A stretch of DNA of 33,691 bases from an uncultured bacterium (GCA_964010765.1 CAXGMD010000034.1:1-33691); one strand, 5' to 3'. Counted from the stretch's first letter, positions 15,032 through 18,854 are shown. The notes: generated from the letters alone by a model not told the origin. Numbers and translations are program-made.

Positions 15032-15050
15032 TAATCTATTGGGAATATGC

Positions 15051-15947
15051 ATGAAGAAGAAAAGTGCGCTATTGATCCAGAACGCACCTTGCGAACGTTG
15101 TCACGGCACCCATGTCCTGATTGAAGCGGTCCCCAGGCAACGCTACGCAAGAGGGCGGCTCTGCGAGTGCTTCCCTACACCTTGCCACGCTTGTAGTGGA
15201 ACAGGCTTTATTTTGCGACGTGACCGTTTCCATCGCGAAATGGCAGCGAGTTGCCCAGAGTGTGTTGGTCGCCTGCAGCGGGTGGAATTGTACAACGAAG
15301 CCCGAGTGCCGAGGCGTTATCTGCATAGCCGTCTGCAAGTAGCGGATCAAGACAAGCACAATGCTCAGATTTTCTCTCTGCTTGACGCAATTCATCGCAA
15401 CCTGCCGGACTATCTACGTACGCATCAAGAACAAGGTTCAACAACGGATGACCTGAAAGGCATGGTACTGATGGGGCCACCCGGTACAGGCAAGACACAT
15501 TTGCTTAGTGGCTTTGTGTATCAGTGTACGATTACCCATGGGATTTCCTGCGTGTTCCAAGGCTTTACTGAATTACTTTCTGAACTCAGACAAGGCTATT
15601 CCGATGGCAAGTCGGACATGGAAATTATAGAACCTCACCTGCTTGCAGATGTGTTGATCATCGATGATATGGGCAAAGGACGTAACACTCCATGGGAATT
15701 GGGTATTCTGGATACCTTGATCACGGAGCGCTACAACCGAGATCGAATTGTGATGGTGACGACTAACTACACGGAAGCAGAGGAAAATACATTACGTGAG
15801 AGAGTTCTGAGCAAGGACCGAAGCGAGGAAGAACAGTTTCTCAGTGATACTATCCGCAAGCGAGTCGGAGAGAGAATTTACTCACGTTTACGTGAAATGT
15901 GTTACTTCGAAGAATTGAATGGTCCTGATCGTAGGCAAGTCGATTGA
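15051..15947 (+). CDS. DnaC/IstB-like AAA+ ATPase with an N-terminal Cys-rich zinc-finger region
   Basis: Walker A GPPGTGKT, Walker B LIIDD, ITERYN, VTTNY, GERIYSRLREMC; 8 Cys in the N-terminal region. Confidence 0.85.
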   Translation: MKKKSALLIQNAPCERCHGTHVLIEAVPRQRYARGRLCECFPTPCHACSGTGFILRRDRFHREMAASCPECVGRLQRVELYNEARVPRRYLHSRLQVADQDKHNAQIFSLLDAIHRNLPDYLRTHQEQGSTTDDLKGMVLMGPPGTGKTHLLSGFVYQCTITHGISCVFQGFTELLSELRQGYSDGKSDMEIIEPHLLADVLIIDDMGKGRNTPWELGILDTLITERYNRDRIVMVTTNYTEAEENTLRERVLSKDRSEEEQFLSDTIRKRVGERIYSRLREMCYFEELNGPDRRQVD

Positions 15948-15994: not shown

Positions 15995-17026
15995 TCAGAC
16001 TAGTCCTGTTGAGGGTGCCAGCCCAAACATTAGATTCATATTCTGCAACGCTTGCCCTGCAGCTCCCTTCACTAGATTGTCGATTGCACTAACGATCACC
16101 CAATCCTGGCCTTGTTCGTGCCGGAACAAGTTCATCACACAATGATTACTGTGTGCAACGGCTTTTAGATCAGGCATCACACCTGGCTCCAACAAGTGCA
16201 CAAAGGCCTTGTCGGCACAGAAATCCTGATAGCATTTTCGCAGTTCTGCCTCTTCAATTGGCTCACTAAAGCGAAGATAGATTGTACTTAAGATACCTCG
16301 GTTCACGGGTAGCAGATGAGGTGTGAAGATAATATCCCCAAGTTGTTCTTCAGGATAGCCCTGCTGGGCTAGATATAGCTGAATTTCAGGTTGATGTTGG
16401 TGCTGGAAGATCTTGTAGGGTTTCAGATTCTCATTGACATCAACATAGTTGGTTGTTGACTTCTCTACCCTTCCACCAGCCCCACTGACTCCAGACTTGG
16501 CATCAATCACCGGAGGAACGTTCAGTTTTTTCAGGTGATCTCCCAGTGGCCATAGAGCAAGCAAGGCCCCAGTGGGATAACATCCTGGATTAGCAACCAG
16601 CCTGGCAGTGGCGATCTGTTCAGCAAAGACCTCAGCGAGTCCAAAAACAGCTTTTTCTAACCAACTTTCTTCAGGAGCAAGCTTGTAATGCTTGGCTGTC
16701 AGTTCTGGTGTTTGGAGCCGAAACATTCCTGAAAGATCAATTACTCCTACTCCGTCACCATGAAGACGAGGGACCCACTCCAAGCTGGCTTCGTTAGGAA
16801 CTGCGAGGAAAGCGACATCACACTCGGCTACATCAATGTCGTGACCTGTGAAGGTTAGTGAGGAACCTTGATAGGCAGGTAATAACCGACCAACAGGCAT
16901 ACCGTCATAGCGTTCTGATGTGACATGACGCACGTTGGCATTCGGATGTCTCCTGAGCCAAGTCAGTAATTCCAGACCAGAAAGACCTCCAGCCCCAAGG
17001 ATGGCGATCTGCAAATGTTCGGACAT
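15995..17026 (-). CDS. argC: N-acetyl-gamma-glutamyl-phosphate reductase
   Basis: ANPGCYPT, DAKSGVSGAG, HQHQPEI, FTPHLLP..RGILST, IDNLVKGAAGQA; start ATG 17026 after GAGGA. Confidence 0.97.
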   Translation of the reverse strand: MSEHLQIAILGAGGLSGLELLTWLRRHPNANVRHVTSERYDGMPVGRLLPAYQGSSLTFTGHDIDVAECDVAFLAVPNEASLEWVPRLHGDGVGVIDLSGMFRLQTPELTAKHYKLAPEESWLEKAVFGLAEVFAEQIATARLVANPGCYPTGALLALWPLGDHLKKLNVPPVIDAKSGVSGAGGRVEKSTTNYVDVNENLKPYKIFQHQHQPEIQLYLAQQGYPEEQLGDIIFTPHLLPVNRGILSTIYLRFSEPIEEAELRKCYQDFCADKAFVHLLEPGVMPDLKAVAHSNHCVMNLFRHEQGQDWVIVSAIDNLVKGAAGQALQNMNLMFGLAPSTGLV

Positions 17027-17084
17027 GCCGTAGATCCTCAAGAAAATCTTTCAATCAAAGTTGACGTTTCACAATTCGGTTGAT

Positions 17085-17435
17085 TCACCTGAATCGTTGT
17101 TGATAGTACTCCTCGTGAAAGCCTACCAGAAATTCATCATCAATACGCCAGGTAGGAGCTCGCAGATTCCCACTAGGACCCATCACGCTGGCAAGAATCT
17201 CCTCAGGATTATCTGTAGCTGGATTCCATTCCAACAGTTTCTTTCCTTTAGCTACAGTCACTTTCGTAGCTCCCCGAATTAGCTCCCAAGCCGCTTCTGC
17301 TGGGATTTTTTCTTTGCTGGCGTTGATGCGTTCCTCTATAGAAACACTATTTGCGTCAAGAAACTCTTGCGCTCGTTTACACGTGGTTCAACCGTTACGG
17401 AAGTAACCCCATTGAATTGAGATAGACACAATCAT
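17085..17435 (-). CDS. ArsC/Spx-like thioredoxin-fold selenoprotein (UxxC), 116 aa, missing from the ORF track
   Basis: Manual translation: MIVSISIQWGYFRNG-U(TGA 17390-17388)-TTCKRAQEFLDANSV...KVTVAKGKK...VMGPSGNLRAPTWRIDDEFLVGFHEEYYQQRFR*; fills the mgsA-argC gap on the operon strand. Confidence 0.88.
17353..17372 (-). promoter_or_regulatory. Candidate bacterial SECIS hairpin
   Basis: GCG-CAAGA-GUU-UCUUG-A-CGC, starting at nt +16 after the UGA; apical loop begins with GU at +24. Confidence 0.7.
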
Positions 17436-17465
17436 TCTCAAAGAAAAGTTAGGCCACCTGCTCCT

Positions 17466-17888
17466 TCAGGGAAGGCTTGGATGGCGAGGATAGTCTTGTC
17501 CTAGCAATGTAGAACTGAACAAAAAATCAGCTGTTGCCGTGCTACAAGCCATGGGAATATCCCAAACAACAGCGAGCCGAAGCAGGGCCTTGACATCGGG
17601 ATCATGTGGCTGAGAAGTCAAGGGATCCCAGAAGAAAACAAGTAGATCTAGTTTTTCTGTGGCAATGAGTGCCCCGATTTGCTGATCACCACCAAGGGGT
17701 CCGCTGAGCAATCGTGTGATAGGCAGATTCAACTGTTGCTGAAGCAGAGAGCCTGTTGTGCCGGTTGCATAAAGCTCGTGCTGGCGCAGTTGCTCCAGAT
17801 GCCGTTTTGCCCAGGCCAGCAGGAGAGGTTTCTTGTAATCGTGAGCAACAAGCGCGATTCGCTTTTGTTTGGGCAGGGAAGAGGCCAT
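17466..17888 (-). CDS. mgsA: Methylglyoxal synthase
   Basis: [46 protein letters not shown]. Confidence 0.98.
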
Positions 17889-17912: not shown

Positions 17913-18854
17913 TTAGGGTTGCCAGAGATAAAGAAATCCAGAACTGGGCATCAGTGAGTCTGGTACACGAACGAGGTTGACTTCTGCGGCACTGCTTCCT
18001 AACAAAGATGGTTGGAAGGAACTCGGCCGCTGATAGGCTACTACGGTTGCGCTCGCAGCGCCTGTACGCATTTGAGCAGCTAACAAAGCATCCTCCAAGT
18101 ATCCCACATGATCTACGAGTTTCAATCTTCGAGCATCCTCTGCTGGAAAAATGCTTCCATCTGCTAACTTGAGCGCATCTTCTTGCGGAAGTTGTCGATT
18201 TTCAGCGACAAGTCCTACAAAGCGCTCATAGTGAGCGTTTAGAATACGAAGTAAGATTTCACGACTTTCTTTGCCGATAGGCTTCAAAGGTACTGCCAGT
18301 TCTTGCTTCGTAGATCCACTCGCGAGCACTTCCCCCTGGATACCAATTTTTTCAAGCAGCCCTTCAGCATTGAAGCGCACCATGACCACGCCAATACTCC
18401 CTACAACCGATGTTGGATTGGCCCAGATTTCATCACCAGCCAAGGCCGCATAGTAACCTCCTGATGCCCCAATGGCTCCAATGCTGACGACAATCGGCTT
18501 GCCGCTGCGTTCCCTAAATTGTTTCAACTCATGAAACAGCACATCAGCAGTAGTTACCTCTCCTCCGGGTGAGTTGATGTGCAGCAGCACAGCTCGAACT
18601 GCAGGATCTCTAGCTGCCATCACCAACTGTTCTCGCACTTCATCCACGTCAATACTGCTTCTGCGACTGCCCACATTGGAAATCCAGTCAGACGCCATCA
18701 TCCCACTGAGTTCAATCAGCGCGATCTTGGTCGCTCCACTTCCACCTAGGACACGCTCTTCCAGAGGTTGATCACGACTGATGGGTAACTCCAGATTGAC
18801 GTAGCAACCACTGAGAGAAATAAGGAAAGTGATGGCGATTAGTAGTTGTCTCAT
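17913..18854 (-). CDS. sppA: Signal peptide peptidase SppA (S49, short type), lipoprotein
   Basis: Lipobox LSGC, INSPGG, GASGGYY, GSIGV, ADGSIF, LVDHVG. Confidence 0.93.
   Translation of the reverse strand: MRQLLIAITFLISLSGCYVNLELPISRDQPLEERVLGGSGATKIALIELSGMMASDWISNVGSRRSSIDVDEVREQLVMAARDPAVRAVLLHINSPGGEVTTADVLFHELKQFRERSGKPIVVSIGAIGASGGYYAALAGDEIWANPTSVVGSIGVVMVRFNAEGLLEKIGIQGEVLASGSTKQELAVPLKPIGKESREILLRILNAHYERFVGLVAENRQLPQEDALKLADGSIFPAEDARRLKLVDHVGYLEDALLAAQMRTGAASATVVAYQRPSSFQPSLLGSSAAEVNLVRVPDSLMPSSGFLYLWQP

Follow-up and report, generated by a model that had tools for sequence, protein, structure and literature searches.

The window analysed here is a 33,691-nucleotide stretch of DNA from an uncultured bacterium (GCA_964010765.1, CAXGMD010000034.1:1-33691), and is contig C34 of a SAR324 cluster genome (G000; a 3.86-Mb assembly in 266 contigs, 92% complete). 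Between mgsA, coding for methylglyoxal synthase, and argC, coding for N-acetyl-gamma-glutamyl-phosphate reductase, lies a gap whose minus strand, read with translation table 11, yields only open reading frame (ORF) fragments of 58 and 31 aa. An earlier note on this DNA, made from the sequence alone, had claimed that the gap hides a minus-strand gene for an ArsC-like UxxC redoxin, broken only by a TGA at codon 16, and that this TGA is read as selenocysteine (Sec, U). The frame exists as described: it runs from 17435 to 17085, comprises 116 codons when TGA is read as U, has the TGA at codon 16 as its sole in-frame interruption, and is flanked by mgsA and argC. As set out below, this is very probably a genuine selenoprotein gene, coding for a 116-residue protein of the NF041106 family with a predicted thioredoxin fold in which UGA-16 would be decoded as Sec by way of a selenocysteine insertion sequence (SECIS) element.

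The frame opens with ATG at 17435-17433 and closes with TGA at 17087-17085. TGA codon 16, at 17390-17388, supplies the first residue of a U-x-x-C redox motif, and Cys19, the resolving Cys of U-T-T-C, is coded by TGT at 17381-17379. The N-terminal peptide reads ...IQWGYFRNG-U-TTC-KRAQEFLDA... and the C-terminal part ...GPSGNLRAPTWRIDDEFLVGF...; both motifs that the earlier note had picked out, YFRNG-U-TTC-KRAQEFL and GNLRAPT...LVGF, read as it gave them. Codons 17154..17171 (minus strand) specify G89-N-L-R-A-P94, an invariant family signature and presumed cis-Pro loop next to the active site. An alternative start, GTG, lies at 17427..17429, two codons inside the ATG at 17435. Relatives from the genus have ATG at this position, the equivalent position is the start in other genera (M-S-K-x-I-D-W), and contigs of two RNA libraries carry ATG in place of GTG at 17427-17429 (C>T at 17429 on the plus strand). 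Because ATG is found there both in genus relatives and in the RNA-library contigs, the true start may be the codon at 17427-17429 rather than the ATG at 17435.

The translated frame matches the NCBIfam model NF041106, 'ArsC family (seleno)protein', for which the curated cut-off is 85 bits, with a score of 127.9; the match takes in model positions 1-107 of 107 and crosses the TGA. Since a full-length match to a curated model crosses the TGA, the frame is beyond chance, and the ArsC-like UxxC redoxin proposed in the earlier note is borne out at the level of family membership. The hallmarks of the family are all present, namely U/C-x-x-C where strand 1 ends and helix 1 begins, GPxGNLRAP, and GF. 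When the whole genome was searched in six frames with the same model, the gene was recovered at 17103-17417, with one TGA and 120.4 bits.

Conservation and decoding of the in-frame TGA

We searched close relatives in six frames with NF041106, the set consisting of 41 genomes (24 from the same family besides G000, and 16 from the sister family). The 21 matches that pass the cut-off all fall in the taxonomic family of the window, where they occur in 21 of the 24 genomes, as against none of the 16 in the sister family; each of these 21 full-length matches contains exactly one TGA, and a 22nd match is a fragment at a contig end without the site. Across the whole phylum (88 genomes) there are 43 matches over the cut-off, 42 with one TGA and one, in G068, without. 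Among the phylum loci (n=31), TGA always falls in one column, and it is in this column that G068 has TGT. Among species-representative genomes 483 loci were confirmed; the 80 best of them belong to SAR324, Desulfuromonadales, Desulfobacterales and other former deltaproteobacteria. In the combined count, 110 of 111 loci have the site, and it is TGA in 109 and TGT in one; the two locus sets that make up this count overlap in genomes, and counted independently there are 74 distinct Sec-form sequences of 48 nt. Loci L047 and L089 are cut by contig ends. The earlier note had considered three outcomes that would speak against it: a complete genome lacking Sec machinery, Cys codons (TGC or TGT) in all relatives, and an absence of conservation upstream of the TGA. 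None of the three was observed. The Sec machinery is described below; the relatives carry TGA almost throughout, and upstream of it residues are fixed at sites where synonymous positions vary.

This upstream pattern is clear among the 30 distinct Sec-form genes of SAR324. Trp-7 is invariant, the codon for Tyr-5 is TAT in 16 and TAC in 14, and Arg-3 is invariant at the residue level while using all six Arg codons, a pattern that points to protein-level purifying selection 5' of the UGA. Fixed residues with varying codons would not be seen upstream of a gene that starts downstream of the UGA, and they therefore suggest that the UGA is translated through. Past the site, the Cys19 codon is divided between TGC (17) and TGT (13) in the same 30 genes.

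The host genome carries all four components required by the earlier prediction that the organism has SelA, SelB, SelD and tRNA-Sec. The tRNA-Sec was identified by ARAGORN, with anticodon TCA, and scores 60.1 bits to Rfam RF01852 against a gathering score of 47; SelA scores 437 bits. SelB is represented by a 664-aa frame with a wing-3 domain (50.3 bits), of which a 550-aa piece has TIGR00475 as its best family, with 204 bits against a whole-protein cut-off of 242, and EF-Tu models reach at most 91. SelD scores 384.6 bits to TIGR00476 when read through one in-frame TGA in its N-terminal ...TCG-U-AAK motif. The SelD of the host is thus itself a selenoprotein; its gene lies outside the window, on the plus strand of contig C141 (L004:1465-2520).

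Most public gene calls cut members of the family short or misread them, which bears out the expectation in the earlier note that standard gene callers would miss or truncate such a gene. NCBI names several of the public hits 'ArsC family (seleno)protein'. Of the best 120 hits among public proteins, 75 begin downstream of the site; at the site itself, 27 have W and 11 have Cys; one is misaligned, five are unclear and one is without the anchor motif. The W entries are spurious, and are typical of short contigs called under code 4; one such call, P0002, runs past the true TGA stop into 65 spurious out-of-frame residues. A sourceless, chimeric-looking entry of 73 aa (P0048) was not used.

Two readings would leave the TGA without selenocysteine. 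It could have arisen in a Cys-type ArsC-like gene by nonsense mutation, as a lesion in a pseudogene, or through faulty sequencing or assembly, which would fit with a frame that is broken under table 11 and for which gene callers return fragments only. However, the conservation of the TGA refutes this explanation, to which we give practically no credence: 109 of 110 loci share the codon at this column, with many genera and no fewer than two phyla represented, purifying selection is apparent on both sides of it, and the contigs of four independent RNA-library runs cover 17388-17390 and list no difference there. Alternatively, TGA might stand for Trp or Gly in this organism, both standard amino acids (codes 4 or 25), and the W called at the site in the 27 public hits noted above could be taken that way. 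Yet TGA serves as an ordinary stop in this genome, terminating both the selenoprotein gene and mgsA, and the code-4 call P0002 overruns precisely such a stop. Moreover, homologues have Cys at the site and never a genuinely encoded Trp, and a complete Sec machinery is present together with a SECIS hairpin, leaving reassignment every bit as implausible as a lesion. The comparison between relatives, the selection on either side of the codon and the hairpin described below support the claim that UGA-16 is read as Sec.

The hairpin downstream of the UGA

Within codons 22-28 (A-Q-E-F-L-D-A), on the minus strand at 17353..17372, the transcript can form the hairpin GCG-CAAGA-[GUU]-UCUUG-A-CGC, in which the lower stem has 3 bp, the upper stem 5 bp, one A is bulged and the loop is GUU. 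The hairpin is part of the minimum free energy (MFE) fold; the loop G is at 17364, and 23 nt separate the UGA from the loop. In the bacterial SECIS model, as drawn in Fig. 2 of a 2026 review (PMC13188914), the apical loop has 3-9 nt, the upper stem 4-16 bp and one of the first two loop positions is G; the same review gives a spacing of 16-37 nt between UGA and loop and an energy of -7.5 kcal/mol or lower. The 3-nt loop, the 5-bp upper stem, the G in first loop position and the 23-nt spacing all lie within these structural ranges. The earlier note had described this hairpin and its agreement with the bacterial model, and the structure stands; its '+24' counts from the A of the UGA, the spacing itself being 23 nt, and the energy is borderline.

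The significance of the hairpin comes from comparison with relatives only. Given 20 SAR324 sequences, RNAalifold returns exactly the hairpin at 17372-17353, with 99.3% of cells paired and both-sided changes at two pairs. In four cases G-C has become A-U and in one case A-U has become G-C; against these stands one A-C break, and the score is reached by one of 500 shuffles. Synonymous sites are frozen at hairpin codons +7 to +10 only (CAA in 29 of 29, GAG in 30 of 30, TTT in 19 of 19 and CTT in 29 of 30), and equally invariant residues elsewhere are saturated, with five codons for Leu+75, six for Arg+76, and Glu+35 split evenly between GAA (11) and GAG (11). The signature G89-N-L-R-A-P94 is invariant in 41 of 41 aligned sequences and saturated at the codon level (five codons for Leu, six for Arg, four for Ala and four for Pro). 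When codons +6 to +12 of the window are recoded synonymously, 24 of 1536 recodings (1.6%) fold as well, such that the native sequence beats 98.4%. Finally, in all 74 distinct Sec-form sequences the MFE fold has the G of codon +8 in its apical loop, the loops being GUU in 38, GGU in 23, AGUU in 10, GGC in two and AAGCG in one.

Together these results support a decoding scheme. UGA-16 would be decoded as selenocysteine by SelB and Sec-tRNA(Sec), directed by the small hairpin that lies 15 nt downstream of the UGA and is a putative SelB target. The candidate SECIS is encoded within the codons of helix alpha-1 that specify A-Q-E-F-L-D-A, and its G(U/G)U loop is separated from the UGA by 23 nt. In common with the SECIS of E. 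coli fdhF, the hairpin is intra-coding and sits just after the UGA, a G followed by a U opens the apical loop, and the spacing falls within 16-37 nt. It differs in its very small size, the upper stem having 5 bp and the loop 3 nt, and its energy is at the edge of the model threshold.

The evolutionary history of the one Cys form in the phylum also bears on the hairpin. We built a tree of 41 proteins, in which U was entered as C and the root is a midpoint root only. It separates, at a support of 100/100, into two clades: a Cys-only clade of 10 rows, and a clade of 31 rows made up of 29 Sec forms and a single SAR324 Cys gene (two identical rows), which is nested in a supported subset of 28 rows. 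This Cys gene, L027 from G068, is the sole Cys (TGT) form in the phylum. It keeps the Q-E-F-L peptide, but the GAG codon has become GAA, which removes the loop G; the lower stem has disappeared as well, and the energy is -3.6 kcal/mol as against -7.0 for the hairpin in the window. Given a root between the two clades, L027 looks like a secondary replacement of Sec by Cys, because it is nested among Sec forms and its SECIS has decayed.

Several points weigh against a selenoprotein gene with a SECIS of this kind. The folding energy is -7.0 kcal/mol for the 20-nt hairpin and -8.5 for a 27-nt stretch with flanks, and thus falls on either side of the -7.5 threshold depending on the length of sequence folded; as a single sequence, the SECIS region folds no better than expected (z = -0.77, with 43 of 200 shuffles folding as well). 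Some Sec forms have weak hairpins, L026 reaching -2.7 kcal/mol with an A-C mismatch, and L029 and L033 -4.2. On a wide alignment of 57 sequences RNAalifold returns no hairpin; with a continuous stem, 72.8% of the cells in this set are paired, and one slid control has a higher covariation score (0.150 versus 0.131). There is no single consensus in the 57 sequences because clades differ in register, with a lower stem that is bulged or continuous and a loop of 3 or 4 nt. Pairs 22-34, 24-32 and 25-31, which form the core, are kept in 57 of 57, and pair 21-35 is U-A (22) or C-G (8). Covariation statistics alone are therefore insufficient on this wide set. In addition, the conserved peptide forces part of the nucleotide conservation, and when 17200-17500 was compared with Rfam at E <= 10, three unrelated families came up at chance level and no SECIS family. 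Beyond the hairpin, we infer the redox chemistry discussed below from motif and predicted fold only, and among 84 flanking ORFs at 47 loci there is no partner conserved across taxa, only lineage-specific repeats.

Family relationships and possible chemistry

Outside NF041106 the protein has few recognisable affinities. A Pfam scan gave only Glutaredoxin, with 17.8 bits and below its cut-off, and no match to PF03960 at E <= 1. Scores to ArsC reductase models are at most 11.6 bits, the value for NF008107, which has a cut-off of 121; the Spx/MgsR model TIGR01617 gives 26.2 bits against 75.05, and two Spx equivalogs give 16 and 12.5 bits. In the 41-sequence alignment the invariant columns are W9, Y11, R13, C/U16, C19, G86, P87, G89-P94, G105 and F106.

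An AlphaFold2 model made from this alignment has a mean predicted local distance difference test score of 92.6 and a predicted template modelling score of 0.83. It has a strand at residues 9-12 followed by a helix at 17-28, and a central beta hairpin formed by strands 58-63 and 66-70. The model would place Sec16 at the N-terminal end of helix 1 and Cys19 a turn further along, which is the classic redox position of the thioredoxin fold. In Foldseek comparisons the top ranks are taken by Spx, YffB and ArsC-related structures at template modelling (TM) scores of about 0.5. By Z score, glutaredoxins come within 1.5 Z. A sequence profile reaches the solved ArsC-type protein 2m46, Spx and YffB over the full length, but only at E about 1e-3; the R92-A-P94 loop aligns near K-R-P of 2m46. 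Because TM-scores are about 0.5 and profile E values about 1e-3, the protein is a distant and distinct branch of the ArsC/Spx/YffB superfamily, below the membership scores of ArsC proper and Spx. Relative to Spx of B. subtilis and YffB (PA3664), identity is only 15-18%, and the window protein has Sec instead of the first Cys.

Selenoproteins of this type have been described before. Zhang et al. 2006 list, for Desulfotalea psychrophila, an 'ArsC-like' selenoprotein family and, for Desulfuromonas acetoxidans, a 'distant ArsC homolog' (PMC1794560). The Global Ocean Sampling (GOS) study distinguishes 'Arsenate reductase 2, UxxC', for which it counts 42 selenoproteins and 238 Cys homologues, from 'ArsC 1, UxxS' (PMC2398784), and the UxxS family is described in the Sargasso Sea paper (PMC1088965). 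The 2026 review lists NF041106 as 'Arsenate reductase-like protein, UxxC', credits the GOS study, and in its treatment of such selenoprotein families calls their functions largely uncharacterised (PMC13188914). The gene in the window is an ordinary member of this family, which is already curated as NF041106 and has been in print since 2006-2008: it shares the full-length match, the position of U/C-x-x-C, the GPSGNLRAP...GF signature, a SECIS directly downstream in Sec forms, and a marine and deltaproteobacterial distribution, and we find no difference of substance. With 'Arsenate reductase (ArsC) 1' of the Sargasso Sea and GOS studies (pfam03960/TIGR00014) it has in common an N-terminal active-site Sec, a predicted thioredoxin fold of the ArsC superfamily and an occurrence in marine bacteria. 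That family is UxxS, however, without a resolving Cys, and matches true ArsC models, whereas the window protein is UxxC and falls below the ArsC cut-offs.

If UGA-16 is decoded as Sec, the selenolate of Sec16 would attack an oxidised substrate, which might be a disulfide, a mixed disulfide or possibly an oxyanion. Cys19 would then resolve the adduct to a selenenylsulfide, and re-reduction would be carried out by the thioredoxin or the glutaredoxin system.

What the protein acts on can be approached through its possible identities. It might be a true glutaredoxin-coupled ArsC-type arsenate reductase in which Sec replaces the catalytic Cys. ArsC enzymes carry a catalytic Arg triad around the nucleophile (R773 ArsC). 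An ArsC identity is unlikely, given how far below their cut-offs the ArsC models score (11.6 against 121 bits for NF008107) and that PF03960 gives no match; the published distinction between the UxxC family and the UxxS 'arsenate reductase' selenoproteins argues the same way, and the window offers no ars operon context at the gene, only mgsA and argC. Still less likely is that the protein is not an enzyme at all but a redox-sensing regulator of the Spx/MgsR kind that binds RNA polymerase, for although Spx is among the top structural ranks, this is only at TM-scores of about 0.5 with glutaredoxins within 1.5 Z, and the Spx models stay well short of membership (TIGR01617 at 26.2 bits against 75, the equivalogs at 16 or less). 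In addition, the central region of the predicted model, with its beta hairpin (strands 58-63 and 66-70), may differ from Spx, in which this region is helical. A further proposal, which we put forward tentatively and regard as rather improbable, is that the family is a distinct selenenylsulfide redoxin, neither arsenate reductase nor Spx-type regulator, whose substrate is possibly anionic or a metalloid. The idea of an anionic or metalloid substrate stems from R13, K65 and R92, which are invariant and surround U16, and from ArsP-type permeases beside the gene in four of the 47 loci. What the distinct-redoxin proposal adds is an unusually minimal SECIS (a 5-bp stem and a G[U/G]U triloop) that would be fixed within the sequence coding for the helix-1 peptide A-Q-E-F/V-L. 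The peptide and the RNA signal would thus constrain each other, and this would explain why nearly all members outside the Cys-only clade have stayed Sec.

Gene neighbourhood and meaning for the family

The upstream neighbour, mgsA, lies at 17466..17888 on the minus strand (NF003559, 201 bits) and the downstream neighbour, argC, at 15995..17041 on the same strand (TIGR01850, 341.5 bits). The three genes are co-directional, with spacers of 30 nt between the mgsA stop TGA and the ATG, and of 43-58 nt between the selenoprotein gene's stop and argC, and no terminator-like or promoter-like site was found on the minus strand between them. It is probable that mgsA and the selenoprotein gene form a co-transcription unit, and the selenoprotein gene is probably co-transcribed with argC in SAR324. 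Adjacency to mgsA is seen in this genus only. Adjacency to argC is kept across SAR324 genera, with a semialdehyde-dehydrogenase ORF of 342-361 aa directly downstream in the loci scanned (L043, L048, L053, L060 and L063).

In metatranscriptomes, at least 79% of sampled words of the locus are found in 17 RNA runs, and in three of the four RNA runs compared a single contig spans 16900-17950, from mgsA through the selenoprotein gene to where argC starts, and its TGA is intact. RNA-library contigs may derive from DNA; what they show is that the locus is present and its TGA unbroken, whereas transcription or an operon is not shown by them, and we give them no weight as evidence of expression.

Two further genes in the window flank this cluster. 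Upstream of mgsA and on the same strand, 17913-18854 codes for an S49-family signal-peptide-peptidase-like protein (Peptidase_S49, 143.5 bits). Convergent to argC, 15039-15947 on the plus strand codes for a 302-aa IstB/DnaC-like AAA ATPase with a Cys-rich N-terminus and a weak DnaJ CXXCXGXG match. An IstB-like ORF is also found beyond argC in L049, and ORFs of similar size in L050 and L058, so this ORF looks like a conserved neighbour rather than an IS21 helper.

Apart from argC in SAR324, the neighbours seen across the 47 loci are specific to lineages: GyrA-like in five, ArsP_1 in four, NFACT in three and DUF815 in three. The ArsP-type 'predicted permease' (PF03773) adjoins the gene upstream in L071 and L100 and downstream in L077 and L091, and is the only arsenic- or metalloid-flavoured context seen among these loci. 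In five loci of one Desulfobacterota-type lineage (L070, L081, L099, L115 and L116) the gene directly follows a GyrA/ParC-like gene of 753-770 aa on the same strand. A gene of the NFACT family lies downstream in L081, L099 and L114.

A reading made without tools has thus recovered a real recoded gene that ordinary callers break, in a family for which public gene calls are mostly wrong. To the description of NF041106 we add the SAR324 lineage, its linkage to argC, and a SECIS stem that is bulged, in contrast to the continuous stems of Desulfobacterota. The biological gain is small, and amounts to one SAR324 member, a comparative description of the SECIS, and one apparent reversion from Sec to Cys.
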